Below, piece after piece: positions 3,351-52,806 of a DNA stretch of 64,000 nucleotides. The notes beneath the pieces were generated by a model. It was not told the origin of the DNA, did no database searches, and saw only the letters and a list, made by a program, of their open reading frames with translations. Source of the DNA: a bacterium (GTDB lineage: Bacteria > Patescibacteriota > Minisyncoccia > Phycocordibacterales > UBA9973). The stretch is from positions 355,733 to 419,732 of the forward strand of contig JBAWZD010000001.1 of NCBI GenBank assembly GCA_037143195.1, in the 5' to 3' direction. Within the stretch, counting starts at the first letter, position 1. Every line of letters begins with the position of its first letter. Both the position numbers and the translations under genes were made by a program.

Positions 3351-4532
3351 TTAGTGGTGCCACTTTTCGTATTTTTTCGCAATTGATTCGAGTGCTTTGA
3401 GCGCTCGTTCGATATCTTTTTGATGCGTTGTTCGTCCGATTGAAAATCGCACACTTCCCCATGTTGCATCGTCGCCTTCACCGTACAGAGCTTTGAGTAC
3501 GTGCGAGCCCGTGTCTTTGGTAGAGGCACAAGCACTTCCCATTGAGCATTGTATGCCACGCGAGTCGAGCTCAAGCACGAGGAGCTCGCTCTGAATTCCT
3601 CGTATCGAAATATGAATATTGTTTGGCAGGCGAAATTTTCTACTACCATTTATGCGCGCGTTTGGAATTCGTTTTTCAATCTGTTCCAAAAATGTATCGC
3701 GAAGCAGGATGAGTCGCTGTTTTTCTTCTTCCTGAATCGATCGCGCACTCGTGAGTGCTTTGGCGAGGCCAATACATCCAACAATATTTTCTGTACCCGA
3801 ACGAAGTCCTGATTCTTGCCCGCCTCCATACATGATTGGTGCGATCGGTGTTCCGCGATGCACATAGAGCACAGCAATGCCACTTGGTCCTCCGATTTTG
3901 GTTCCGTTAAACGTCATTAGGTCGACACCAAGCTGTTCAACATTACAATTCTCGTACTGTATGGCTTGGCACGCGTCTGTGTGAAAGAGCGGATAGTGTT
4001 GTGCGCTATCTGTATTTGTTTTTTTGAAATGACGAATCTCTTTTGCCACATCGCGAATCGATTGGATTGTTCCAATCTCGCTATTGCCGTATGCGATTGA
4101 AACAAGAATTGTTTCTGGTCGGAGCGATGCACGCAATTGCTTCATATCAATGCGACCAGTCTCGTCTACCTTGAGATAGGTGACATCCGCTCCGACCGCC
4201 TCAAGATGATGGCACGCTTCGAGCACGGCAGGATGTTCCGTTTCGGTCGTAATAATATGGAGAGTCTTGTTTTGAAACAGTGGATTCATTCGCGCGTGCT
4301 TGAACACGCCAAGAACGGCGAGATTGTCGGATTCAGTGCCGTTCCCTGCAAAGAAAATTTCGCTTGGGTGGGCAGAGAGTGCTGTGGCAATGTCGGCGCG
4401 CGCGCCCGTAAGGGCGCGCGCGCTTTCTACCCCCTTCGAATGTATCGAACTCGCATTCATAGCCCAAAAACTCGCCCAAAAAGTAGCCCATCGGACCTCG
4501 GGGAGCATTGGCGCGAAAGCCGCATAGTCCAT
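3351..4532 (-). CDS. cysteine desulfurase (NifS/IscS family, class V aminotransferase)
   Basis: Contains ...HTDACQAIQ...LMTFNGTKIGGPSGIAVLYV...SGTEN, typical of NifS/IscS. Start placed at the ATG at 4530-4532 (MDYAAFAPML...), which matches the usual MxYLDxAAT start. The track's longer N-terminal extension is unlikely. Confidence 0.85.
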   Translation of the reverse strand: MDYAAFAPMLPEVRWATFWASFWAMNASSIHSKGVESARALTGARADIATALSAHPSEIFFAGNGTESDNLAVLGVFKHARMNPLFQNKTLHIITTETEHPAVLEACHHLEAVGADVTYLKVDETGRIDMKQLRASLRPETILVSIAYGNSEIGTIQSIRDVAKEIRHFKKTNTDSAQHYPLFHTDACQAIQYENCNVEQLGVDLMTFNGTKIGGPSGIAVLYVHRGTPIAPIMYGGGQESGLRSGTENIVGCIGLAKALTSARSIQEEEKQRLILLRDTFLEQIEKRIPNARINGSRKFRLPNNIHISIRGIQSELLVLELDSRGIQCSMGSACASTKDTGSHVLKALYGEGDDATWGSVRFSIGRTTHQKDIERALKALESIAKKYEKWHH

Positions 4533-6986: not shown

Positions 6987-6990
6987 TGTG

Positions 6991-7071
6991 TGCCCGAGGT
7001 GGGACTCGAACCCACACTCCTTACGGAATTCGATCTTAAGTCGAACGCGGCTACCATTACGCCACTCGGGC
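6991..7071 (-). tRNA. tRNA-Leu(UAA)
   Basis: The reverse complement folds as a cloverleaf: gcccgag acceptor, anticodon loop ctTAAga, long variable arm, ttcgagtcc T-loop. Confidence 0.8.
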
Positions 7072-7097
7072 ATTCCGACGCACTATACCGCACAATG

Positions 7098-7168
7098 AGG
7101 CCTGGGCGAGAATCGAACTCGCGATGAGGGATTTGCAGTCCCCTGAATTACCACTTTTCTACCAGGCC
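7098..7168 (-). tRNA. tRNA-Cys(GCA)
   Basis: Reverse complement ggcctggtagaaaagtggtaattcaggggactGCAaatccctcatcgcgagttcgattctcgcccaggcct. Acceptor ggcctgg pairs with ccaggcc, and the anticodon loop is ctGCAaa. Confidence 0.8.
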
Positions 7169-7225
7169 GTGTCGAAACACTCAGGAACTATACAGGTATT
7201 AGGGCGCGAAATCAAATCAAAAAGC

Positions 7226-7253
7226 TTGAAATTTCTTATAAAAAAGGTATACT
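7226..7253 (+). promoter_or_regulatory. sigma70-like promoter for the tRNA-Lys/tRNA-Leu(UAG) pair
   Basis: TTGAAA, 16-nt spacer, TATACT, about 19 nt upstream of tRNA-Lys. Confidence 0.5.
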
Positions 7254-7271
7254 GATGACTGTTTTATAGTT

Positions 7272-7344
7272 CCGCCCATAGCTCAGCTGGTAGAGCACTC
7301 GCCTCTTAAGCGATTGGTCGTTGGTTCGATTCCAACTGGGCGGA
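7272..7344 (+). tRNA. tRNA-Lys(CUU)
   Basis: ccgccca acceptor, D-arm gctcagctggtagagc, anticodon loop ctCTTaa, T-arm ggttcgattcc, 3' acceptor tgggcgg plus A. Confidence 0.8.
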
Positions 7345-7371
7345 CAACAGTGGGCGTACAATGTGCATCAT

Positions 7372-7453
7372 GCCGGGATGGCGAAATTGGTAGACGCACT
7401 TGCCTTAGGAGCAAGCGGGGTGACCCATGGAGGTTCAAGTCCTCTTCCCGGCA
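7372..7453 (+). tRNA. tRNA-Leu(UAG)
   Basis: gccggga acceptor, anticodon stem cttgc/gcaag with loop ctTAGga, long variable arm cggggtgacccatgg, ttcaagtcc T-loop. Confidence 0.8.
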
Positions 7454-7460
7454 CACATAC

Positions 7461-13820: not shown

Positions 13821-14345
13821 CTATGTTCGCACTAATATCATACCATAATGCATATCACCTGCGTCGATATCACGCTCTTTTTGAAAGCCATGACGACGAA
13901 AGAGTGCAAGCGCCATGTCACTTGTCACTTTGTGTTTCGCATGCGGACCACCGGCAACATCGTGGCGCCACTCAACGAGCAATACTTTTCCTCCTGGACG
14001 AAGCAGACGCTTCACTTCCTGAACAAACGCATCTCGATCATCAACTTGGAAAAATATATTTGTTGCAATCACTCGATCAATCGTTTCTCCTGCAAGCGGA
14101 ACACCTGTCAGACGAGAAACATCACCCCAAAGAGTATGGATATTTGTAAGTCCTCCCGTGCGAGCTTCTGTCACGAGACGAGAAAGCATTTCTTTTTCGA
14201 TATCAACTGCAAACAAACGTCCTCCTTCGAGTCGTTTTGCCGCGGCGAGTGCAAAATGTCCAGCACCACTTCCTAAATCAGCGACATGTTGCGTGCCGTA
14301 AACTCCAAACTGTTTGAGAGCGTCATCTGGATCAAGAAATTTCAC
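13821..14345 (-). CDS. class I SAM-dependent methyltransferase
   Basis: Motif I VADLGSGAGHFALAAA, motif post-I LFAVDIEKEM, and PGGKVLLVEW. Confidence 0.8.
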   Translation of the reverse strand: MKFLDPDDALKQFGVYGTQHVADLGSGAGHFALAAAKRLEGGRLFAVDIEKEMLSRLVTEARTGGLTNIHTLWGDVSRLTGVPLAGETIDRVIATNIFFQVDDRDAFVQEVKRLLRPGGKVLLVEWRHDVAGGPHAKHKVTSDMALALFRRHGFQKERDIDAGDMHYGMILVRT

Positions 14346-14377
14346 ATATAAATTATAGCAATTAATTTGTGTTTACT

Positions 14378-14518
14378 CAAAGCGAGGGTGCAAAAAATAC
14401 AAAATGCCTTTTCAAAGTACTCGCGGAGCGCGACGGCGCGAGCGTGAGGCGAAAATCCTTCAGGATTTTACGCCGGTACTTTGAAAAGGCATTTTGTATT
14501 TTTTGCACCCTTGCTTTG
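14378..14518. repeat. long perfect hairpin (about 43-bp stem) enclosing a conserved ~55-nt core; copy A of a two-copy element
   Basis: 5' arm aaagcgagggtgcaaaaaatacaaaatgccttttcaaagtac, 3' arm gtactttgaaaaggcattttgtattttttgcacccttgcttt. Core tcgCGGAGCGCGACGGCGCGAGcgtgAGGCGAAAATCCTTCAGGATTTTACGCCG (capitals shared with copy B at 21237-21291). Lies between the gyrA stop and the methyltransferase start. Confidence 0.8.
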
Positions 14519-14521
14519 ATA

Positions 14522-16996
14522 TTACAAACAAGTGATTGATGCCACTTTGTCTCCAGCACGAAGCTTCATGATCGAGACACCTTGAGTTTGTCGTCCGAGT
14601 TTTGAGACTGAATCAAGCGCTGTACGAATGACCTGTCCCTTCTGACTCATCGCAATGAGCTCTGCTTCATCAGTAATGACCTTGGCCATAATGAGATCAC
14701 CGGTCTTTGGAGTGACTTTCGCAGTCTTGATTCCAGAACCTCCGCGCTTTTGCACTTTGTATTCTTTGAGTGGAGTTTTCTTTCCGAGTCCGTTTGCACT
14801 CATGACGAGCAACATCGCAACATCACGTGTTTCTTTTTTGACGATATCGAATCCAACAATGAGATCACCCTTGCCGAGTTTCATTGCGCGGACACCACCT
14901 GCAGTGCGTCCCATCTCACGAACATCAGCTTCCTTGAATCGGACACTCTGGCCCTTTGCCGTCGCAAGCATGATTTCATCTCCTTTTTCAACGAGACTTG
15001 CGCCACGGAGACTGTCGTTCTTGTCGAGGTTGATTGCGATGATGCCACTGCGACGAACATCGGCGAATTGTTTCGAACTCATTTTCTTTCCTGTTCCATT
15101 TTCAGTCATCAAGAAAAGATATTGCTCCTTGCCTTTTTCTGATTTTGAAACAGGGAGAATACTCATGACACGCTCGCCATCAGCGAGAGAAATGAAGTTC
15201 ATTACAGACTTCCCTTTCGTCGCGCGCTTTCCTTCTGGAATATCATACATTTTGATTTGATATGCCTTTCCGAGGTTTGTAAAGAAGAGCAAATCATCAT
15301 GTGTGTTTGCAGACAAGAGAATTGTGACAAAATCTTCTTCCTTGGTCTCAAGGTCAACAACGCCAACACCTCCACGCTTTTGTGAGCGGTATTCAGCCGG
15401 ATCAGTGCGCTTCACATAGCCACCTTCGGTAAAGACGAGCATCGATTCTTTTTCCGGAATCAGATCTTCGTCAGTGATTTCTTTGACGCCACCTTTTACG
15501 ACGCGAGTTTTGCGATCATCGCCGTACTTTTCTTTCATTTCACCAAGCTCTTTGCCAATGACTGCAAGCATGCGTTTTGGACTTGCAAGAATCGCTTTGA
15601 GTTCGGCAATCAAATCCTGTTTCTCCTTGAGTTCTTGTTCGACTTGTTTGCGTTCAAGACCCGCGAGTTTTTGCAAACGCATTTCAAGAATAGCAGTTGC
15701 TTGCAAATCGGAGAATTTAAACTCCTTCATAAGATTGAATTTTGCAATTGCTGCGTCTTTTGAGGCGCGGATAACAGAGATAACGCGGTCGATGTGGTCG
15801 AGTGCCTTCTTGAGACCGAGCAAAATGTGCTCGCGTTCTTCTGCCTTGCGGAGATCGTATGCAGTGCGACGCTTCACGACGTCTTTGCGGTGCTTGATGA
15901 ACTCGTCGAGAATGCCCTTGAGTGAGAGTGTCTGAGGTACGCCATCAACGAGCGCAACCATGTTGAAGTGGAAAGCTTGTTCGAGCTGAGTGTGACGATA
16001 CAGATAGTTGAGGACTTTTTGTGGGAAGACTCCTGTCTTCAAATCAATCACGACGCGGATGTCTTTGGTCGATTCATCGCGGAGACCTTTGATACCTTCA
16101 ATTTTTTTCTCTTGCGCAAGTTCGGCAATACTCTGAATGAGGTTTGATTTGTTGACGCGATATGGGATAGACGTGATGACGATCTGTGAGAGTCCAGCTT
16201 TCTGCTCGACAATTTCTGCTTCTCCACGACAGACGACGCCACCGCGGCCACTTGAGTACGCATGAAGCATATCCTTTGAACCGTAGACGAGTCCGCCCGT
16301 TGGAAAATCCGGACCTTTGACGAATTGCATGAGGTCTTCTGTTGTCGCCTCTTCGTTTTCGATGAGGTGCAATGTCGCATCAACAATCTCAGTGAGATTG
16401 TGTGGAGCAATGTTCGTCGCCATACCAACGGCGATTCCAAGCGTTCCATTGATGAGCAAGTTTGGTACGCCAGCGGGAAGCACGATCGGCTCTTTGAGCG
16501 TCGCGTCGTAGTTTGGACGGAAGTCGACGGTCTCCTTTTCGAGATCTTTCAAAAGATCATTCGAAAGTTTTGACATCTTGGCCTCGGTATAACGCATCGC
16601 AGCAGCGTTGTCGCCGTCGATCGAACCGAAGTTACCTTGTCCGATAATGAGCGGATAGCGGAGAGAGAAATCTTGAGCCATTCCCACCATCGAATCATAC
16701 ACAGCGGTATCACCGTGTGGGTGGTATTTTCCGAGCACATCTCCCACCACTGCAGCAGATTTCTTGGTCTTCGCGCTTGAAGTGAGACCCATCTCATGCA
16801 TCGCATAGAGAATACGGCGGTGCACTGGCTTCAAGCCGTCGCGGACATCAGGAAGCGCACGAGCTGTAATAACAGACATCGCGTAACTAATGTATGAAGT
16901 TCGCATTTCAGTACTAATACCAATCGGAACGACTGAAACGTGCGGAATCTTCGGAATCTCTTCGGATGCTTCGGTTTTGCCAGTTTTTTTAGCCAT
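14522..16996 (-). CDS. gyrA: DNA gyrase subunit A
   Basis: 824 aa. Active-site region AAMRYTEA, GyrA-box-type C-terminal beta-pinwheel, and QRRGGxG repeats ([11 protein letters not shown]). Confidence 0.97.
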
Positions 16997-20223: not shown

Positions 20224-20535
20224 ATGAAACTAATTATCTCAATATGCATATCGCTCTATGCATCGTATGTTGCTCACAAAAACGGAGAGAGCATCCGTGC
20301 TGTAATATTTTTCGATATATTTTATCTTATAGCTGGCTATGCTCAGCTTTTCGGACTAGAAAAAACAGGAAAAAGACTCCGAATGACACCAGATGGATCA
20401 ACGTTGAGAAAAGAATCACAGCCAATTGCAATTATTGTTGCATTCTCAGCAATAGCGCAAGTTCCATTTTTGCTATTGACGACGGCATCACTCATTGGGT
20501 ATGAAATATATCTTACTCAAAAAAAGCAAGCGTAA
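20224..20535 (+). CDS. hypothetical membrane protein (weak call)
   Basis: Three hydrophobic helices. The track's ORF start overlaps the rpsA terminator, so a later ATG at 20224 is used. Confidence 0.3.
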   Translation: MKLIISICISLYASYVAHKNGESIRAVIFFDIFYLIAGYAQLFGLEKTGKRLRMTPDGSTLRKESQPIAIIVAFSAIAQVPFLLLTTASLIGYEIYLTQKKQA

Positions 20536-20568
20536 TTGGGGAGTCACATCATGTGACTCCCCAATTTA
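20533..20568. terminator. bidirectional terminator hairpin between the 20224 ORF and pth
   Basis: aatt ggggagtcacat c atgtgactcccc aatt. Confidence 0.65.
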
Positions 20569-20573
20569 AGTTA

Positions 20574-21164
20574 CTAGTTATTAAACACCGTCATCATCTT
20601 CCCTCGCCCTTCGTGCGCGTACATGTCGAGTGATTCGCCAACACGCTTTGCGATTTTTTTCAATTCGGCAAGTTCGCTGTCTTTAAAATCTTTCATCAAA
20701 AAATCAATCACGGCCTGTTCGCCTTTTGGTTTTTTCATTTTGCCCCCAGGAGTTTCTGGCGAGACGCCAATACGAATACGCACGAATTCCTGACTCTTGA
20801 GTACTTTGATGATGTCGCCGAGACCGTTGTGCCCGCCACTCGAACGATCGAATGAAATCTTGATGCGACCGATAGGCAAATCGAGATCGTCATAAATCAC
20901 GACGAGATTTTCCAAATCTTTTTTGGCTTTGATGAGTGGCTTCACGCTCCCACCAGAATTATTCATAAAATTGTCTGGCGCAACAAATTGCATTTTAGTC
21001 GTGCCAATTTTGCCCGTAGCCCACAGCGCACGGGTGCGTTTGTCCGCGTACCAATCCGAAAAATCATTTTTCTTGGCAAGCATCTCCAAAATAATTCGTC
21101 CCGCATTGTGACGAGTCTGTACGTATTCCTCTCCTGGATTTCCAAGTCCTACAACTGTAAGCAT
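20574..21164 (-). CDS. pth: peptidyl-tRNA hydrolase
   Basis: MLTVVGLGNPG..YxxTRHNAG, and GHNG catalytic region. Confidence 0.95.
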   Translation of the reverse strand: MLTVVGLGNPGEEYVQTRHNAGRIILEMLAKKNDFSDWYADKRTRALWATGKIGTTKMQFVAPDNFMNNSGGSVKPLIKAKKDLENLVVIYDDLDLPIGRIKISFDRSSGGHNGLGDIIKVLKSQEFVRIRIGVSPETPGGKMKKPKGEQAVIDFLMKDFKDSELAELKKIAKRVGESLDMYAHEGRGKMMTVFNN

Positions 21165-21191
21165 TCAAACAGTATATCTCATTCGGAGCAC

Positions 21192-21335
21192 AACGGAAAC
21201 GGTGCAATTATGCAAAATGTGTGCTCCGAAAGCATCTTCGGAGCGCGACGGCGCGAGAATAAGGCGAAAATCCTTCAGGATTTTACGCCGGTGCTTTCGG
21301 AGGTCATATTTTGCATAATTGCACCGTTTCCGTTT
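21192..21335. repeat. long hairpin enclosing the same ~55-nt core as 14378-14518; copy B
   Basis: Arms aacggaaacggtgcaattatgcaaaat..ctccgaaagca pair with tgctttcggag..attttgcataattgcaccgtttccgtt. Core tcttCGGAGCGCGACGGCGCGAGaataAGGCGAAAATCCTTCAGGATTTTACGCCGg. The arm sequences are unrelated to copy A, but in both copies the arms are self-complementary. Confidence 0.8.
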
Positions 21336-21381
21336 GACAATATAAAGTACATTGTTGTCAATAGGGATTGTATACTACAAT

Positions 21382-21960
21382 ATGCCACATATGGATGAAA
21401 TTAAAAGCCCCCAGTCAAAATGGCATGGTGCCCGTGAATTCGGTAAGTTTATCTTCATGGTCGTCGCAATAGTAGTCGTGGTTCGTGTATTCATCGCCCA
21501 GCCGTTCGTCGTGTCTGGAACCTCAATGGTGCCTACATTTCAGGACAAAAACTACCTCATTGTCGATGAATTGACCTATGACTTCAAAAAGCCATCTCGT
21601 GGCGACGTCATCGTCTTCCATCCCCCAGTCGACATGAGTACCTACTACATCAAACGAGTCATCGGTCTTCCTGGTGATACCGTCACAATAAAAAACAGCG
21701 TCATCACTATCACAAATGTAAGTCATCAGGACGGACTCGTACTCACCGAAGACTACATCACCAAAGACACTCCCGACGACAATTTCTCTGTCACCGTTCC
21801 GGCCAATCAGTACTTCGTGATGGGAGACAATCGTCCCGCAAGTTTTGATTCACGCCGTTGGGGACTCCTTCCTGCAAAAAATATCACTGGCCGTGTCCTC
21901 TTCCGTCTCTTCCCCGTCAACGAAATCTCTATTTTCCCTGGCGAACATTCTAAATATTAA
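21382..21960 (+). CDS. lepB: signal peptidase I
   Basis: SGTSMVPTF (catalytic Ser box), KRVIGLPGD, GDNRPASFDSRRWG. Start placed at MPHMDEIK after the track's short N-terminal extension. Confidence 0.9.
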   Translation: MPHMDEIKSPQSKWHGAREFGKFIFMVVAIVVVVRVFIAQPFVVSGTSMVPTFQDKNYLIVDELTYDFKKPSRGDVIVFHPPVDMSTYYIKRVIGLPGDTVTIKNSVITITNVSHQDGLVLTEDYITKDTPDDNFSVTVPANQYFVMGDNRPASFDSRRWGLLPAKNITGRVLFRLFPVNEISIFPGEHSKY

Positions 21961-21976
21961 TTAATTATTCGCAGTA

Positions 21977-23299
21977 TTGTATATGCCTACATCAAAAAAA
22001 CCCGCAAAGAAAGCTGCTCCAAAGACAGGAGAACTCGCCGCACCAAAAGGAATGCGCGATCTCATTGGTGAAGAATATTATCTCTTTCAGGGATTCTTCG
22101 AAAAAGCTCAAGAGGTAGCAATGTATTACGGATTCAAACCCGTAGAGACACCAATGCTTGAACATGATTTCATTTTCAGCTCTGGAATCGGAGCTGGTAC
22201 TGACGTCGTCGACAAAGAAATGTACACGCTTCGCACAAAAGGTGGCGACATGCTCGCCCTTCGTCCAGAGCACACGGCGAGTCTCATGCGTGCATACATC
22301 GAACACGGTATGGCAAACCAGCCACAGCCATGTATGTTCTATCAATACGGTCCTTCATTCCGTCACGACAATCCGCAGAAAGGACGTTACCGCGAATTCT
22401 ACCAATTCGACATCGACGCACTTGGTTCTGAAAAAAGTATTCTTGATGCACTCGTCATCAAGACAATGCTCACCATCATCAATGAAAGTGGCGCACCAGC
22501 AACATCGATTGATCTCAACTCAATCGGTTGTAAAGATTGTCGCCCAGGATATGTTCGTGAACTTGTGAACTACTACAAGAAACATGTAAACAATCTTCCA
22601 GCAGTTGATCGCGAGCGTTTGAAAGCAAATCCACTTCGCATCCTTGATTCCAAAGAAGAAAAGACTCGCGAGATCAACGAAGGTGCTCCCGAAGCAATTT
22701 CATTCCTCTGTCCTGCATGTAAAAAGCACTTCAAAGAAGTCCTCGAATATCTTGAGGAAATGGAAGTGCCTTACAACATCAACAAGAATCTTGTTCGTGG
22801 TCTCTCCTACTACTCCCGCACAGTGTTCGAAGTCGTCGTTCCATCAGAAGACGGTGGCGCACCAATGGCAATCGCCGGTGGAGGTCGCTATGACTATCTC
22901 GGACGTCAGCTCGGAAGCAAAAAAGATATTCCAGCGATTGGTGTTGCGCTCGGCGTTGATCGTCTCATCTCGATGCCATGGTACAACAAGCACACTCCAC
23001 GCATCATCAAGAAGCCTCGCGTCTACTTCATCCAGCTCGGTATTGAAGCAAAGCTCAAGAGTCTCAACATCATTGAGATTCTCCGCAAAGCGCATGTCCC
23101 AATGGCACAGGCGCTCTCAAAAGATTCGCTCGGTGCACAGCTCGCAATGGCAGAAAAATCTGGTGCTCCATACACAATCATCTTCGGACAAAAAGAAGCC
23201 ATCGAACAGTCCGTCATTGTGCGCAATATGACTACGCGTTCTCAAGAAACAGTCAAACAAAAAAACTTGGCTGACTACATGAAAAATCTTAACAAGTAA
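21977..23299 (+). CDS. hisS: histidyl-tRNA synthetase
   Basis: Class II aaRS motifs. HisRS-specific GMRD, ALRPEHTAS, FYQFD, GGGRYDYL. C-terminal anticodon-binding domain. Confidence 0.93.
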   Translation: MYMPTSKKPAKKAAPKTGELAAPKGMRDLIGEEYYLFQGFFEKAQEVAMYYGFKPVETPMLEHDFIFSSGIGAGTDVVDKEMYTLRTKGGDMLALRPEHTASLMRAYIEHGMANQPQPCMFYQYGPSFRHDNPQKGRYREFYQFDIDALGSEKSILDALVIKTMLTIINESGAPATSIDLNSIGCKDCRPGYVRELVNYYKKHVNNLPAVDRERLKANPLRILDSKEEKTREINEGAPEAISFLCPACKKHFKEVLEYLEEMEVPYNINKNLVRGLSYYSRTVFEVVVPSEDGGAPMAIAGGGRYDYLGRQLGSKKDIPAIGVALGVDRLISMPWYNKHTPRIIKKPRVYFIQLGIEAKLKSLNIIEILRKAHVPMAQALSKDSLGAQLAMAEKSGAPYTIIFGQKEAIEQSVIVRNMTTRSQETVKQKNLADYMKNLNK

Positions 23300-23320
23300 T
23301 CACTCACCTGTTTCAAACTC

Positions 23321-23923
23321 ATGTTGACCATCGTCCAAAAAGAAAATCCTGTCTTGCGTGCAATCGCACAGGAAGTTCCGATTTCCGAAATTGAGAGCGC
23401 ACACATCAAGCGTGTCATTCGTGACATGAAAAAGATGCTCAAGACACAACCTGACGGTGTCGCTATTGCCGCACCACAGATCGGTGAATCGCTCCGCATC
23501 TTCGTCGTGTCTGGAAAAATCTTTGAAGAATCATGGCAGAAAGAACTCGTGCTTCCTGAAGGCACAGCAGTCCAGACGCCAGATCTCACATTCATCAATC
23601 CTCGAATTTTGAAACTTTCAAAGACAAAGAAATGGATGCACGAAGGATGTCTTTCGGTGCGACCACTCTGGGGTGAAGTTGAGCGTTCGACCAATGCAAC
23701 GGTCGAAGCGTATGATGAAACCGGCAAAAAATTTACCCGTGGAGCGGGCGGATTGCTCGCGCATATTTTCCAACACGAGACAGACCATCTTGATGGCGTG
23801 CTCTTCATCGACCGTGCACGAAATGTCGCCCCTGGAGAAGTTCCTCCTCCCGTGACTCCCGCAAAAAAGGCTCGTAAACCCAAAGCGCCAGTAAAAAAGT
23901 CGCCAACCAAAACGAAGAAATAA
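23321..23923 (+). CDS. def: peptide deformylase with a Lys-rich C-terminal tail
   Basis: GVAIAAPQIG, EGCLSV, HETDHLDG motifs. Confidence 0.95.
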   Translation: MLTIVQKENPVLRAIAQEVPISEIESAHIKRVIRDMKKMLKTQPDGVAIAAPQIGESLRIFVVSGKIFEESWQKELVLPEGTAVQTPDLTFINPRILKLSKTKKWMHEGCLSVRPLWGEVERSTNATVEAYDETGKKFTRGAGGLLAHIFQHETDHLDGVLFIDRARNVAPGEVPPPVTPAKKARKPKAPVKKSPTKTKK

Positions 23924-23924
23924 C

Positions 23925-24779
23925 ATGAATCCGCAAATCAAAATTGCATTCTGGGGCACGCCACAACTCACGACTCATTACCTCGATGCACTTGAGCAAG
24001 CAGGACTCAAACCTGCGCTCATTATTACAAACCCCGACCGCCCAAAAGGTCGTGGTCAGGAGATCGCACTCACTCCGGCAAAAGTCTGGGGTATCAAACA
24101 CAATGTGCGCGTCTTGCAACCAGAGCGACTTGATGAAGCTTTTTTTCAAGAATTTTTGGAATATAAAATAAACGTTTCGATTGTCGTCGCGTATGGATCA
24201 ATCCTTCCAGAACGCTTCATTGACGTACCTCAATTTGGCACGCTCAACGTCCACTACTCACTCTTGCCCCGCTACCGCGGGGCCTCACCCATCGAGGCCT
24301 CAATCCTCTCCGGAGACAAGGAAACCGGCGTTGCAATTCAAAAGATGGTTCGTCTGCTCGACAGCGGTCCACTCATTGCCGAGAAAATGGTGCCACTGGA
24401 TGAGCACCTGACCGCGCCAGAGCTTCGTGAGCACCTTTCTGTTGTCGGCGCACAACTCATGTTGGAAACGCTTCCCAAGTACCTCACGGGGCTCCTCACA
24501 CCCGCTCCACAAGACGAGTCCAAGGCAACATTCTGCACCAAAATCCAAAAGGAAGATGGCTTCCTTGATCTCACAGGTAATCCTGTCTACCTCTATCGCA
24601 AATACCGCGCATATTACGAATGGCCACGCACATTTTTCTTTTACGAGAGTAACAACAAAAAAGTTCGCCTGATCATTACCAGAGCGAACTTCGTTGATGG
24701 CGTATTCGTCGTCGAACACGTTTTGCCTGAAGGCAAGAAAGAAATGAGTTTCGACGATTTCAAACGCGGGTTTAAATAG
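23925..24779 (+). CDS. fmt: methionyl-tRNA formyltransferase
   Basis: IAFWGTPQ, NVHYSLLPRYRGASPI (formyltransferase SLLP motif). Follows def in the classical def-fmt arrangement. Confidence 0.95.
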   Translation: MNPQIKIAFWGTPQLTTHYLDALEQAGLKPALIITNPDRPKGRGQEIALTPAKVWGIKHNVRVLQPERLDEAFFQEFLEYKINVSIVVAYGSILPERFIDVPQFGTLNVHYSLLPRYRGASPIEASILSGDKETGVAIQKMVRLLDSGPLIAEKMVPLDEHLTAPELREHLSVVGAQLMLETLPKYLTGLLTPAPQDESKATFCTKIQKEDGFLDLTGNPVYLYRKYRAYYEWPRTFFFYESNNKKVRLIITRANFVDGVFVVEHVLPEGKKEMSFDDFKRGFK

Positions 24780-24802
24780 GGCCTAGATAAATCGCGCGAA
24801 AA

Positions 24803-25171
24803 TTATTTCTTCCACGAAAGTCCCTTCATCATAGATTTGATTTTGCGTGCACCGCGATGAAAGAGTGTGCGTCGTTTTGCATTACTCTGTGTGACTTCAC
24901 GCATGAGTTCTTCTTTGGCGAGATCTACCGCCGCAGTAATATCGCCCGCAACACCTGTCGCAAAAAATTCACGTTCGTGGAGTTTAAATTTCACTTCCAC
25001 ATGATATGAATCGTCGCGTGTACGTGCCGTCGCGCGCGAAACAGTGAGGAGTATTTCGTGACCAACATCGTCGGTCATAAAACGCTCAAACCCACGAAAA
25101 CGCTTCTCGATATAGTCACGAACCTTGTCCGAAATCGAAACCGTGTCCCCTGTTATTGTGTAAGTAATCAT
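24803..25171 (-). CDS. hpf: ribosome hibernation promoting factor / RaiA family
   Basis: 122 aa, MITYTITGDTVSISDKVRDYIEKRF..., YfiA/HPF-type beta-alpha-beta-beta-beta-alpha fold signature. Confidence 0.8.
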   Translation of the reverse strand: MITYTITGDTVSISDKVRDYIEKRFRGFERFMTDDVGHEILLTVSRATARTRDDSYHVEVKFKLHEREFFATGVAGDITAAVDLAKEELMREVTQSNAKRRTLFHRGARKIKSMMKGLSWKK

Positions 25172-25183
25172 GCGTATAGTATA

Positions 25184-25420
25184 TCACTCATTCTCTCCCG
25201 GCATAGTGATAGAAAAAATCTTGTGCGGACTCTGGTGTCCGGAAATGAGTCGAGCGGTATTCTCAGGCACGCCAAGCTCTCGCGCAATGAGCGTACGGAT
25301 GCGTACATTCGCGAGATTGCGCTCGGCTGGCTCTCGGACGCTGATCTCATAGCGGTCAGGCCCGAGTCTCGTCACAAGCTCCTTTTTGGCCCCTGCCGTA
25401 ACATTGACTCGGATGTACAT
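25184..25420 (-). CDS. DUF167/YggU family protein
   Basis: MYIRVNVTAGAKKE..LVTRLGPDRYEISVREPAERNLANVRIRTLIARELGVPENTARLISG. Start placed at the ATG at 25418-25420. Confidence 0.7.
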   Translation of the reverse strand: MYIRVNVTAGAKKELVTRLGPDRYEISVREPAERNLANVRIRTLIARELGVPENTARLISGHQSPHKIFSITMPGENE

Positions 25421-25513
25421 ATCTTTGCATTTTAGCACTTTTTTTGTTAGTATTTTTGAGTTCGTGACGCGTGTCCAAATGTGCGCCGAAGCGTGCCCTT
25501 GAAAACCCAATAT

Positions 25514-25829
25514 TCCCCTGTAGCTCAGCGGTAGAGCAATCGACTGTCAGTAAGGCAGCTTCCTAGAGAAATCTAGGTCGAAAACGAGGTGAACTCGGTG
25601 AAGCCCACGAAAGCAATTTCTGGGGTAATACCGAGCCAAGCTCTGATATCAAATTCAGAGAAGGTGTAGAGACTATCCCCTTTGCGGGAGTACTCCGACA
25701 TCTGTCGGCGGAAGCGCCTCGGCCCTCACAGACCAGAAATGGTCAGAGGGTATGATATAGTCCACCCCTTTAAGTAATTTTAGGACAAGTGTAATCGATT
25801 GGTCGCAGGTTCGATCCCTGCCGGGGGAG
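25514..25829 (+). tRNA. tRNA-Asn(GUU) interrupted by a group I intron in the anticodon loop (exons 25514-25547 and 25792-25829)
   Basis: 5' exon tcccctg ta gctcagcggtagagc a atcga ctgt. 3' exon taa tcgat tggtc gcagg ttcgatc cctgc cggggga g. Spliced product is 72 nt with anticodon loop ctGTTaa, discriminator G, and acceptor tcccctg/cggggga. Confidence 0.8.
25548..25791 (+). ncRNA. group I self-splicing intron (~244 nt) inserted between tRNA-Asn positions 35 and 36
   Basis: 5' exon ends in U and the intron ends in G (omega-G). A candidate P1 forms between exon ctgt and intron ggcag near the intron 5' end. The conserved group I core elements are present: ttcagagaaggtgtagagactatcc (R/P7-like) and atgatatagtccac (S element GAUAUAGUCC, 25754-25763). 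Confidence 0.75.
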
Positions 25830-27533
25830 CAGAGTAGGACACACGTCCTCAAAAACCGCATTTCGTCCTGAAGTATCAAGTATATTTTTAGGTTCGAACT
25901 GCGGATTTTTTGTTTTTGCTTCAAGCAATCCTTTTTCGATCGTCTTATACAGAATTCCCTTTGTAATTATTACTTTTTTCTCGGTTAAAGTTAGGTTCGA
26001 ACCCAAACTAGAGAGTGCCTCCGTAATCTCTTCAAAATCGCCACTTTTGATAACTTCTTCCAATTCCGTGAGAATCTCGAGCTTATTGGTAACATCTCTC
26101 ATATCGAGCTTAAAGTCTTGTCCTACGCCCATTCTGGCGCGAACATTCGCCATTTCTCCCTTTATTTCTAACTCTTTTTCTCTAAAGCCCTCCTCGTCCG
26201 TAAAACCTCTTGTGTACGCATCAAGTAATCGTCCATGCTGTTCTTCGAGTCGCTTCATATCCTGATGCCAGCTGTTTTCGATCGTTTTGTCAGTCGTTTT
26301 CTGCTTATGTTCTAATATCTCTATGTTATCAATACACCACCTCGCAAGAGGTGGTGAGAGAGCAATTGTGCGGATATAATCATCTACAACCTGTTCACCA
26401 AGGACACTTTCGCTGAAGCTTTTCGCTGGACAATCAGGCACTTTCTTTTTTGTGCAGTGATAATAGATATAATTTAAAACTTTATTCTTGATACTACGTA
26501 AACCACTACCACATTTGGGACACGCACTTTTATTCGACACAGCAAACTTGTTTTTGCAATTACCACACATAATCTGCAGTTTCTTTTCAGCAGTAACTGA
26601 ACCACCGCAGTGTCCGCATTTTAAGAAATTCTTGTACGGAAATTCTTCTCTATGGGTGGATGATCGCGGATTACCTCTACGACGAATCAATTTGAGAATT
26701 TTGTAATGCTCTCGTTCTGTTATCATCCGTGGCACTAAGGGATTCACTTCATACCTGACAGTGTTCCCATCCGAATCTTTACCGAAGAAGAATCCTGCAT
26801 AGAATGGATCACTGAGCATCTTGTACGTCAGCGAAAGTTTCAATGGTTTACCTCCAAACTTCTTTCTCGCAACACTATGAAGCATAAAATCGTTCACAGC
26901 AACACGGTGCAATTCTCTGACTGAATATTTCTCTGTTAGAAACATTTGAAATAGTTTTTTGACGATTTCAAATCTTTCTGGATCAATCAACGTTTTTCGA
27001 AACCCCTTTTCTCCTCGATCATTCGCATATCCGATTTTTGCAATTCCGGGCGGATATCCCATCTGTCGCTTTTTCACAAGCCCGCGCTTAACGTTCTCGC
27101 CCTTGTTGTCGTTCTCCATCTTTGCCTGACTACAGAGCATCGTGAAGAAAAACTTGTCAGAGGGTGTATTTCGGAATATCTGTTGTTTGGTAATTATATA
27201 TTTTAATTTTTCCTCATCTAACAAATCAACCAGTCGCCCAGCATCTCCAGCATTTCTCGAAAGACGATCAGGGTGCCACGTGATAATTGCTTGCACGCTA
27301 CCTTTGTTAATATCTTTAACCATCTGCTCAAAGACAGGTCGTTGTCCTGATTTCTTTGCTGATTTTGCTTCGGTCAATTTTTCGCTTTCTTGTAATTCAA
27401 AACCATAGCTTATAGCAAGTTTATCTGTCTCAGCTTTTTGTGATTCTATCGACAATGCCTGACGTTCTTCTTGCTCGCTTGATTTGCGATTATATGAGCG
27501 TGCTTTAAGTCCTTTGAATTCACCTTTATCCAT
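25770..27533 (-). CDS. large serine recombinase (phage-integrase-type, resolvase/invertase catalytic domain plus recombinase and zinc-ribbon domains)
   Basis: N-terminus ARSYNRKSSEQEERQALSIESQ (catalytic Ser region), central recombinase domain, Cys cluster CGHCGGSV...CGNCKNKF...CPKCGSG, coiled-coil tail. The 3' end (…LPRQGSNLRPIDY) is encoded antisense to the tRNA-Asn T-arm and 3' exon. Confidence 0.85.
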   Translation of the reverse strand: MDKGEFKGLKARSYNRKSSEQEERQALSIESQKAETDKLAISYGFELQESEKLTEAKSAKKSGQRPVFEQMVKDINKGSVQAIITWHPDRLSRNAGDAGRLVDLLDEEKLKYIITKQQIFRNTPSDKFFFTMLCSQAKMENDNKGENVKRGLVKKRQMGYPPGIAKIGYANDRGEKGFRKTLIDPERFEIVKKLFQMFLTEKYSVRELHRVAVNDFMLHSVARKKFGGKPLKLSLTYKMLSDPFYAGFFFGKDSDGNTVRYEVNPLVPRMITEREHYKILKLIRRRGNPRSSTHREEFPYKNFLKCGHCGGSVTAEKKLQIMCGNCKNKFAVSNKSACPKCGSGLRSIKNKVLNYIYYHCTKKKVPDCPAKSFSESVLGEQVVDDYIRTIALSPPLARWCIDNIEILEHKQKTTDKTIENSWHQDMKRLEEQHGRLLDAYTRGFTDEEGFREKELEIKGEMANVRARMGVGQDFKLDMRDVTNKLEILTELEEVIKSGDFEEITEALSSLGSNLTLTEKKVIITKGILYKTIEKGLLEAKTKNPQFEPKNILDTSGRNAVFEDVCPTLLPRQGSNLRPIDYTCPKIT

Positions 27534-28655: not shown

Positions 28656-28923
28656 ATACCCAAAGTGTACCAGAAAGTGCCGTTTATGCTATGATAATTT
28701 TGTACCGCAAGGTATTCGAACAATTTAATATGAAAGTAACCTAAACCATCGCTTCGGCGGTGGCATGGTGAAAAAATCCGACTAAGGAGCAAACAACCCA
28801 TCATATGGGGGCTTCCTTAGTCGGTCATACGTCGAAAGGCGTATGGATGTCGCAAGACATCACCCCTGTGATGGGCTTTTTGCTGTCCATTTAGGGGGTT
28901 TTATCAGACTTTAAAATAACATT

Positions 28924-52296: not shown

Positions 52297-52569
52297 CTTT
52301 TCGTCTCGATCCAAATACAAAAGCCATCATTTTAGTGATGGCTTTATTTATTTTGTGTCATTTATATAATTAAATGACGGATATACTTGGTGTGCCCACA
52401 ACGGGGCGATAGTTAGCCCGTTCCTACATGAGGAGCGGTGAGGGAGAAAAGTGTGGCCTTCACAAAGGAAAGCATGAATTCAATTTGTTTTCAGTGTGAA
52501 GAACTTTTGTCCATTGAGAACGGGTTCTCAAGTTTGGTACGGGCTACATGCTCGAACTATTCTTTTTTA

Positions 52570-52612
52570 AAAGAAAACACCAGCCATCTTTCGAAGGCTG
52601 GTGTTTTCTTTG
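52570..52612. terminator. strong bidirectional terminator (16-bp perfect stem) closing a ~230-nt noncoding stretch
   Basis: ttttttaa aagaaaacaccagcc atctttcgaa ggctggtgttttcttt. Confidence 0.7.
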
Positions 52613-52806
52613 AAGAGAGTCTCAAGTTCAAAGCAAAAATCAGCCTTCGAGAGGAAGGGTAATCACAATTGCTTTTCCTTTGGACATGCGACGAAACATA
52701 CTCGAAGTATAGCAGGTAACACTCCCCCGTCAAGCAATCGAGTTGTATACGCGCACGAAAAAATATACAATTACATGCATTACAAGAAATTAATTCTATA
52801 TTTATT

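Follow-up and report, generated by a model that had tools for sequence, protein, structure and literature searches.

We analysed a stretch of 64,000 nucleotides (nt) from a genome of the Patescibacteriota (contig JBAWZD010000001.1, positions 355,733 to 419,732), which we call the window, and studied a long foldback element that occurs in it twice, as copies A and B. An inverted-repeat search of the window detected 18 inverted repeats, of which these two were the longest. The arms of copy A (14377-14425/14471-14519) are 49 nt long and 94% complementary, and those of copy B (21192-21234/21292-21334) are 43 nt long and 93% complementary. Both copies are intergenic, as a first reading of the letters alone (the sequence-only reading) had stated. 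Copy A lies 2 nt past the stop codon of gyrA (14522-16996, minus strand) and 31 nt ahead of a gene for an S-adenosylmethionine-dependent (SAM) methyltransferase (13821-14345, minus strand). Copy B lies in the spacer between the divergent genes pth (20574-21164, minus strand) and lepB (ending at 21960, plus strand).

The sequence-only reading described two hairpins around a common core, with a fold like a three-way junction, and was right on both points. The blocks CGGAGCGCGACGGCGCGAG and AGGCGAAAATCCTTCAGGATTTTACGCCG, common to A and B, each have two exact occurrences in the window, against none expected from 100 shuffles. No third copy was found when the whole window was scanned with the covariance model, filters off. 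As single strands, copy A folds with an energy of -97.2 kcal/mol (z = -15.1) and copy B with -94.8 kcal/mol (z = -14.4). In the predicted fold of both, a long stem (P1) is capped by two small hairpins (P2 and P3) to give a three-way junction. Covariation, a check that the same reading had named, strongly supports this architecture in all helices. In an alignment of 65 distinct sequences fitted to the covariance model, which somewhat favours structure, 92.4% of cells were standard pairs, compared with 42-49% when the 3' partners were slid by 1-3 columns. There were changes on both sides in 25 of the 28 pairs, and none of 500 shuffles reached any of the five observed measures. An ungapped MAFFT alignment that was not fitted to the model (A2) was 95.2% paired, against 52% or less when slid, and the 18-sequence seed alignment gave the same picture.

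The four variable nucleotides between the two conserved blocks are not the free linker that had been supposed. They make up the 3' strand of the 5-bp base helix of P2, and they covary with the 4-5 nt just 5' of the conserved GGAG. Copies A and B belong to different subfamilies, with base helices CUCGC/GCGUG and UCUUC/GAAUA; elsewhere we found CUCUC/GAGGG, CUUAC/GUAAG and others. The 4-bp helix at the tip of P2 covaries when the search pattern is relaxed (GCGC/GCGC, GGAC/GUCC, GGCC/GGCC, CGCC/GGCG). P3 is a covarying hairpin of 11-12 bp, and a bulged A in its 3' strand is kept in 83% of sequences. Ten unpaired positions are 97-100% invariant. The invariant unpaired nucleotides lie in the P2 internal loop (G-N-A/G-A), in the P2 terminal loop (G-A-C-N), between P2 and P3 (a single A) and after P3 (a G).

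Some members of the family depart from this plan in size but retain the invariant positions. A variant in Colwellbacteria (locus L022, about 2370-2535; L-numbers are the labels of the loci compared) has the same arms around a 120-nt head, in which an extended P2 ends in a GUAA tetraloop. One Parcubacteria subfamily has an added 3x3 GAA/GAA internal loop and an outer AAC/GUU stem, and some P3 hairpins have C(UUCG)G loops. Two copies carry an extra mini-hairpin, at the junction in one and in the P3 loop in the other. A mini-palindrome, CCTGCCTGCC-GACA-GGCAGG or a close variant, lies inside two family members (L082 9385-9404 and L051 about 3600-3625), at the P2/P3 junction in one and in the P3 loop in the other. 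It may be a second, tiny nested palindromic insert.

Two known structural classes were considered for the head and rejected. The P2 loop is not a k-turn, as it has 3+2 rather than 5+2 nt and position 17 is not always G. Nor is the junction a hammerhead ribozyme: its strands are just 0 nt, A and G(G/U), it matches no Rfam family, and there is no CUGAUGA core, as had already been remarked. The twister, twister-sister, pistol, hatchet and hairpin ribozymes and the HEARO/IS605-orfB motifs, all in Rfam, were likewise without a match.

Further copies, which the sequence-only reading had thought worth seeking, were found in related genomes and in metagenomes. A scan of reference genomes, one per species, for the pattern GGAGCGCGACGGCGCGAG-N3-6-AGGCG gave 30 loci; 4 were chance matches in G+C-rich genomes and 26 were in metagenome-assembled genomes (MAGs) of Patescibacteria labelled Saccharibacteria, Paceibacterota, Parcubacteria or Colwellbacteria. 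Seven copies lie on a single 645-kb scaffold of Colwellbacteria. A sister genome, 'Ki1-1-6m_bin-1343', has 13, and its locus L033 is 88.8% identical to window positions 20452-25831. The same pattern gave 37 loci in metagenomes, about 28 of them true. A covariance model of 74 positions, seeded with 18 ungapped copies, gave 76 matches (65 distinct), including copies whose P2 is unlike the search pattern. Across the family the element is about 115-170 nt long, and it can be as dense as one copy per 2 kb (5 copies in 10 kb at L062, 4 in 5 kb at L082). One contig of the sister genome starts inside a copy (L016 1-62), which suggests that the repeat breaks assemblies.

The 18-nt search string is exact in every scan match, across several lineages of the candidate phyla radiation (CPR), and a 29-nt P3 block is identical in A, B and L033. 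No family member was found in viral contigs, phage records or plasmid records; in viral contigs the P2 18-mer alone gave only chance matches in G+C-rich coding DNA, and the P3 27-mer gave none. Within the searches made, the family appears to be restricted to Patescibacteria/CPR. In the window, the 4227 models of Rfam 15 matched four tRNAs and LOOT RNA at gathering thresholds and nothing at A or B. At E <= 10, A and B matched only generic long-hairpin models (mir-2059, 19.7 bits against a threshold of 90; MIR1523, 22 against 96), and the Colwellbacteria elements had no Rfam match. As no Rfam model matches, we regard the element as a separate family. Literature searches for the sequence, for CPR repeats and for RNA motifs found no description of it.

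The pairing is not symmetrical between the two strands. In the tip, read on the strand that carries GGAG, there are 56 G:U or U:G wobbles and 13 A.C or C.A mismatches. A strand-neutral count in the distal arms, in which all non-Watson-Crick pairs were treated alike, gave 45 against 9 (p = 7e-7, with copies that are not all independent). The GGAG strand folds better than its complement by 10 kcal/mol in copy A and 12 kcal/mol in copy B; the gap is usually 10-23 kcal/mol in Parcubacteria copies and 3-23 kcal/mol over all copies tested. The one-sided wobbles and the better fold of the GGAG strand argue that pairing is selected on one single strand that tolerates G:U. This strand is probably RNA made from the GGAG strand, since tolerance of G:U favours RNA, and the small structured RNA that the sequence-only reading listed among its options fits this pattern. 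A consistent promoter 5' of the GGAG strand was not found; some copies have TAnnnT-like hexamers there, at no consistent position.

A comparison of copy B with its ortholog at L033 shows which part of the element is constrained. The 57-nt tip is fully identical, the arms are about 94% identical, and the surrounding 5.4 kb is 88.8% identical. At that identity, an unconstrained stretch of 55 nt would remain unchanged with a probability of about 0.001 (0.888^55). To judge from these substitution levels, the frozen tip is under purifying selection. The L033 stem is nearly perfect, with one clean compensatory change in the arms (U:A to G:C). The early description of a conserved core on a closing stem that varies while remaining paired was accurate. 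Between the window and L038 the arms show several double changes and mirrored insertions or deletions (GAGG in one arm, CCTT in the other). Mirrored changes of this kind are hard to obtain by independent mutation, which suggests that, besides selection, the sequence of one arm is transferred to its partner, through template switching or through conversion inside the palindrome. To call the arms of the two copies unrelated, as was first done, overstates the case; they do differ, but they have GGTGCAA...CAAAATG...GAAAG in common, and each type has nearer kin elsewhere in the sister genome.

The tip can also be inverted. The GGAG strand of copy A is antisense to gyrA and the methyltransferase gene in the window, and sense to them in L038-40. 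The element keeps its boundaries and has homologous arms, and its tip, on the opposite strand, is identical at 55 of 57 positions. The flanks confirm the flip: one element's upstream flank aligns on the minus strand with the downstream flank of its counterpart, with 82.6% identity over 386 nt. This was the sole true flip among the orthologous pairs compared. Because the arms are palindromic, its simplest cause is an exchange between them; a separate insertion at this very nucleotide, in reverse orientation, could also account for it, though less parsimoniously.

The unit that is repeated is the entire hairpin, arms included. In Colwellbacteria, L012 and L017 have only 3 differences in about 115 nt and stand in unrelated flanks. 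The seven Colwellbacteria copies combine three arm types and two P3 types in five ways, which indicates exchange between copies. In the sister genome, arms of the A type occur at other loci with 88-90% identity (L010, L014, L029). Orthologous sites are occupied in some relatives and empty in others. Site A, between gyrA and the methyltransferase gene, is occupied in L038-40, whose methyltransferase is 95% identical, and empty in L043 and L044, where the spacer is 12 nt; the empty site in L043 has no hairpin. Site B, between lepB and pth, is occupied in L033 and also in L085, whose copy differs in its arms and has a covarying variant of the tip. L087 lacks the element and has no hairpin there, and in L088 a plain G+C hairpin replaces it. 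The same arms without the tip were seen at none of 11 orthologous loci.

Other hairpins stand at these sites. Site A has unrelated hairpins in place of the element in L045 (2375-2425), L046 and L047, the last a complex nested inverted repeat (2370-2450). The hairpin in the site B spacer of L088 (1935-1985) is G+C-rich and reads GGCAGCGCGAGCG...CGCTCGCGCTGCC. Both spacers appear to be hot spots of hairpin turnover. At L042 (553-1293) a gene for a 246-aa Y1_Tnp protein (PF01797), similar to the tyrosine transposases associated with repetitive extragenic palindromes (RAYTs), directly precedes the methyltransferase gene, in the position that copy A has in the window. The methyltransferase there is 84% identical and gyrA is not adjacent. 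The Y1 gene is flanked by inverted GAGCAAGG-GTAGT-CCTTGCTC hairpins that are absent from the window and from all other loci compared, and a tblastn search with the transposase found no match in the window or at the other loci.

Among the loci compared, the element is found in 19 of 46 convergent spacers (41%), in 24 of 183 tandem spacers (13%) and in 3 of 44 divergent spacers (7%). A distance of 16-40 nt typically separates the 74-nt core from a stop codon, which means that an arm abuts the stop. Some copies fill the entire spacer inside conserved operons, as in ftsI-element-mur ligase-element. The neighbouring genes identified by Pfam are those of the dcw cluster and other core genes (mraW, ftsI, mur ligase, L21, recR, rpe, rpiB, tgt, ruvA). 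Orientation relative to the genes is mixed in Saccharibacteria-like genomes. In one Parcubacteria subfamily, the gene 3' of the GGAG strand points towards the element every time (13 of 13). In Colwellbacteria, all seven copies have GGAG on the locally C-rich strand (negative local GC skew), and orientation switches with the skew along the scaffold; this bias is inseparable from gene orientation and transcription, and in a Saccharibacteria-like genome the replication-strand bias is mixed. Head-to-head pairs of copies from two subfamilies occur within one tandem spacer at L062 (927-1125) and L052 (2418-2625). In each pair, one copy is antisense to the preceding gene and the other is sense to the following gene, and the two heads could pair with each other in a read-through transcript.

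The arms themselves have a polarity. The 5' arms contain 391 A and 214 T, the 3' arms 204 A and 370 T, and the pattern of an A-rich 5' arm and a T-rich 3' arm holds in 22 of 26 copies. The sequence-only reading noted the lack of a T-run, which is correct outside the hairpin but not inside it. That reading also concluded that the copies are not ordinary terminators. We find this too strong because the copies stand at terminator positions and have the A-rich/T-rich arm polarity of bidirectional terminators. In addition, plain terminator-like hairpins stand at the same sites in relatives.

The element resembles several known systems and coincides with none of them. Repetitive extragenic palindromes (REPs) and their RAYT-mobilised paired form, REPINs, are likewise short, non-coding, multi-copy extragenic hairpins that lie after genes or between convergent genes, show compensatory pairing, contain no gene and act in trans. 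They differ in having a GTAG or CGTC tag and a short imperfect palindrome, with a conserved REP at each end of the REPIN, whereas here the three-way-junction tip is conserved, there is no such tag, and no RAYT is linked. We therefore rejected membership in the REP/REPIN-RAYT system; the sole RAYT encountered, at L042, has its own unrelated REPs.

[quoted passage not shown] Our element is short, non-coding and multi-copy, has inverted-repeat ends, and occurs in unrelated flanks and at sites whose orthologs can be empty, all of which are features of MITEs. However, MITEs keep their terminal inverted repeats and usually have target-site duplications, whereas the termini here are the most variable part, there is no evident duplication, and the neighbourhood of the copies yielded no parent insertion sequence. 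Termini in common with a transposase-encoding insertion sequence were not found either, as there is no transposase near any copy.

Integron attC sites also conserve the structure of one folded strand over its sequence. They lie just after stop codons, are 57-141 nt long and sometimes have a branched tip. In attC the base is conserved (R''/R' boxes, RYYYAAC/GTTRRRY) and the tip is variable, which is the opposite of this family; the only attC-like feature is an AAC...GUU outer stem in one subfamily. Maps of alternating genes and elements raised the idea of integron cassettes, which we rejected, as the Pfam neighbours are core genes and there are neither cassette arrays nor an integrase. The inverted terminal repeats (ITRs) of parvoviruses such as adeno-associated virus are T-shaped hairpins of about 145 nt that exist in flip and flop forms; they end linear single-stranded DNA (ssDNA) genomes, have a Rep nicking site and flip by hairpin transfer when the genome replicates. 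Like them, the element has a long stem, two small arms and a tip found in both orientations relative to its flanks. The likeness may be one of analogy only: the element is an internal chromosomal repeat, not a terminal one, and a single inversion is simpler as an arm exchange.

Bidirectional intrinsic terminators, with A-rich 5' and T-rich 3' tracts around a stable hairpin at gene ends and in convergent spacers, are similar in position at gene 3' ends and in the symmetry of the A and T tracts. The element differs in having a stem 3-5 times longer, a 55-nt branched loop, an outer G+C clamp past the T-rich part and no free U-run, so the sequence of a stem followed by a U-run is missing. It is also like the multi-copy hairpin motifs in Rfam (Breaker/Weinberg type), which are known from comparative analysis only, have strong covariation and have no assigned function. 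TIGR-Tas arrays have a box C (RUGAUGA) and a box D (CUGA) that flank two spacers in a palindromic stem, with a tas gene nearby (PMC12045711). We rejected this assignment, as there are no C/D boxes at conserved positions and no gene for a Nop-domain protein among the neighbours scanned.

Based on these results, we propose a model in which the element is a mobile, structured repeat of the foldback type, comparable to MITEs and REPINs, that is selected in a folded single-stranded form and stands at terminator positions. We consider the chances that this model is right to be about even. In the model, the whole hairpin would multiply as a non-autonomous selfish repeat. Selection would act on the folded single-stranded form of the GGAG strand, most likely RNA rather than ssDNA, and a factor may read the tip. 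Copies would survive chiefly in spacers that face gene 3' ends, where relatives have ordinary terminator hairpins, and the long A-rich/T-rich stems would probably act as termination or insulation hairpins. Selection for folding together with arm-to-arm correction would keep the arms complementary, and recombination or template switching between the arms would flip the tip.

Several observations weigh against this model. With regard to mobility, copy B and the Colwellbacteria copies show no target-site duplication. TA is present at both ends of copy A, L014 and L010, but it is self-complementary and cannot be distinguished from an extension of the palindrome. No transposase was found adjacent to any copy among the neighbouring genes, and when 439 neighbouring open reading frames were clustered for a partner gene, only syntenic housekeeping genes recurred. 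The conserved part is the tip, whereas in classical MITEs and REPs it is the termini. Between species, copies are retained at orthologous sites and their tip stays frozen, a pattern that resembles a host-level function more than a pure selfish repeat. With regard to termination, a consensus scan found no terminator at A or B, and past the hairpin there is no T enrichment on either strand; a U-run is plausible in a few copies and is not general. A terminator would make little sense at copy B, which has divergent genes on its two sides. Last, in the Parcubacteria subfamily whose folding strand is antisense to its neighbour every time (13 of 13), a promoter would have little space, so that expression of that strand is hard to explain.

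The main rival is a functional RNA class that acts in cis or in trans: a rod of about 140-170 nt from the GGAG strand, whose three-way-junction head would bind a protein or be catalytic, as a new motif for self-cleavage or processing. Its many copies would then be so many genes for one class of RNA and would not be due to transposition. Each helix covaries while loop, bulge and junction nucleotides are invariant; G:U exceeds A.C by 4-5 to 1 with a large strand asymmetry in stability; and the tip is frozen between orthologs, all as expected of such an RNA. The size variants argue in the same direction, for both the type II head of L022, with its GUAA tetraloop in P2, and the copies with an extra junction hairpin keep the conserved loops, and the C(UUCG)G loops of some P3 hairpins suit an RNA as well. 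However, there is no conserved promoter and many copies occupy their whole spacer. Orientation relative to genes is mixed, and it is flipped between close relatives without other change. The near-identical copies in unrelated flanks and the empty orthologous sites point to repeat spread, and the junction has almost none of the unpaired core that known small ribozymes need. We consider a functional RNA class of this kind rather unlikely.

A bolder proposal is that the family is a new, CPR-specific class of mobile structured nucleic acid, which we regard as unlikely. In an RNA form, the invariant G-N-A/G-A loop, the GAC loop and the bulged A would be a putative catalytic or protein-recruiting module that drives the element's own spread or processing. 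In a ssDNA form, the element would be a putative single-hairpin transposon, similar to an ITR, that flips between two forms. If such a class exists, it would represent a mechanism of repeat propagation undescribed in bacteria, one that operates at densities as high as a copy per 2 kb although the genomes measure only about 1 Mb.

The next rival is a ssDNA element, in which one DNA strand would adopt the T-shaped fold and be the substrate that an HUH enzyme (Y1/RAYT-like or Rep-like) or a tyrosine recombinase cuts or recombines. REPINs, the ends of IS200/IS605, integron attC sites and parvoviral ITRs are models for this reading. The T shape, with its one flip/flop-like inversion, would follow naturally, as would the ability of only one strand to fold well and the outer AAC...GUU stem of one subfamily, whose unpaired spacer recalls the attC R boxes. 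The RAYT-like Y1 transposase at the place of copy A in L042 is also suggestive, but it has its own unrelated GTAG-type hairpins and no homolog in the window or at the other loci. Similarly, the seven Colwellbacteria copies are on the same replication-related strand and follow the skew, but the strand that folds is the C-rich one and not the lagging-strand template, where ssDNA elements act. The flanks are housekeeping genes (dcw cluster, recR, ruvA, tgt) and not cassettes, no integrase was seen, and the many G:T wobbles in the long stems are commoner in RNA than in DNA. We consider this rival quite improbable.

It is highly improbable that the copies arose where they stand, as ordinary gene-specific terminators or as regulatory palindromes, with a common tip due to convergence or to the site of a host factor. 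Their positions beside stop codons, their enrichment in convergent spacers, the A/T polarity of their arms and the plain hairpins at the same sites in relatives would all fit. An exact 18-nt string across CPR lineages and an identical 29-nt P3 block, however, are far beyond convergence, near-identical whole elements stand in unrelated flanks, a canonical stem with a U-run is missing, and copy B is between divergent genes. Least credible of all is the insertion of a miniature core into the loops of pre-existing hairpins, an option of the sequence-only reading that the conserved tip, the differing stems and the likeness of these stems to bidirectional terminators of the genome (such as inverted repeats I6, I7 and I13) might suggest, but that we reject because no empty site has the arms minus the tip, empty sites can be without any hairpin (L043, L087), arms are common to copies at different loci (Colwellbacteria, the A-type arms), and the arms of the second element at L022 enclose a larger homologous tip and not an empty loop. 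As a whole, that reading was partly supported: the conserved structured core was upheld, and the inserted core and the wholly unrelated arms were not.

The element that we favour, a mobile foldback repeat, is known in kind, as interspersed extragenic hairpin repeats and candidate structured motifs are familiar; this family is uncatalogued. It is distinctive in that a branched tip is conserved rather than the termini, and in its presence in several CPR lineages with an almost unchanged head and, in some genomes, at very high density. CPR/Patescibacteria genomes are very small and have little spare DNA, yet some carry the element after a large share of their genes. A strongly covarying motif with invariant loops and no Rfam entry offers RNA biology a target in a lineage with almost no characterised non-coding elements. 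A role as terminator or insulator cassette, if the element has one, would account for the way in which CPR genomes set their operon boundaries. Mobility through a folded single strand, if that is how it spreads, would point to a trans-acting enzyme common to CPR lineages. The covariance model can be used for annotation, to mark points of rearrangement and to flag assembly breaks.

Table 1. Coordinates of copies A and B and of their parts in the window.
Feature	Position	Strand	Remarks
Copy A, whole foldback element	14377..14519	+	GGAG (folding) strand is +, antisense to gyrA and the methyltransferase gene; covariance-model match 14412-14485, 96.2 bits
Copy A, P1 5' arm, A-rich	14377..14419	+	pairs with 14477-14519
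Copy A, P2	14420..14446	+	base helix CUCGC/GCGUG: 14420-14424 with 14442-14446
Copy A, P2 internal loop GGA/GA	14425-14427 / 14440-14441	+	tip GCGC-GACG-GCGC at 14428-14439
Copy A, junction A	14447	+	between P2 and P3
Copy A, P3 GGCGAAAAUCC-UUCA-GGAUUUU-A-CGCC	14448-14474	+	bulged A at 14470
Copy A, junction GG	14475-14476	+	after P3
Copy A, P1 3' arm, T-rich	14477..14519	+	ends 2 nt from the gyrA stop codon (14522-14524, - strand)
Copy B, whole foldback element	21192..21334	+	covariance-model match 21227-21300, 94.5 bits
Copy B, P1 5' arm	21192..21234	+	pairs with 21292-21334; small internal loop
Copy B, tip	21235..21291	+	P2 21235-21261, junction A 21262, P3 21263-21289, junction GG 21290-21291
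Copy B, P1 3' arm	21292..21334	+	inverted-repeat search and fold

Both copies have signal-like sequences beside them. A promoter-like site precedes the methyltransferase gene (14352-14380, minus strand), with TTGAGT, 17 nt and TG-n-TATAAT (10 of 12 matches). Its -35-like TTGAGT is the outer end of copy A (14375-14380, read on the minus strand), and the layout is the same in L038. In the lepB-pth spacer a palindrome, TTGACAATATAAAGTACATTGTTGTCAA, adjoins copy B (21336-21363). The TTGACA within it is kept in relatives with and without the element (L085, L087, L088), and thus it may be an operator or promoter element.

Elsewhere in the window, four tRNA genes (Leu-taa, Cys-gca, Lys-ctt, Leu-tag) are clustered on both strands at 6990-7454. 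A LOOT RNA (Rfam RF03000) lies at 28738-28861 on the plus strand, with 93.1 bits against a gathering score of 46.4. It borders a stretch of low G+C content (0.33-0.42 at about 28-47 kb, compared with 0.41-0.50 elsewhere in the window). At 52562-52653 there are two overlapping, mutually exclusive inverted repeats, each with 27-nt arms, that have the segment GAAGGCTGGTGTTTTCTTTGAA in common; this arrangement looks like a terminator/antiterminator switch.

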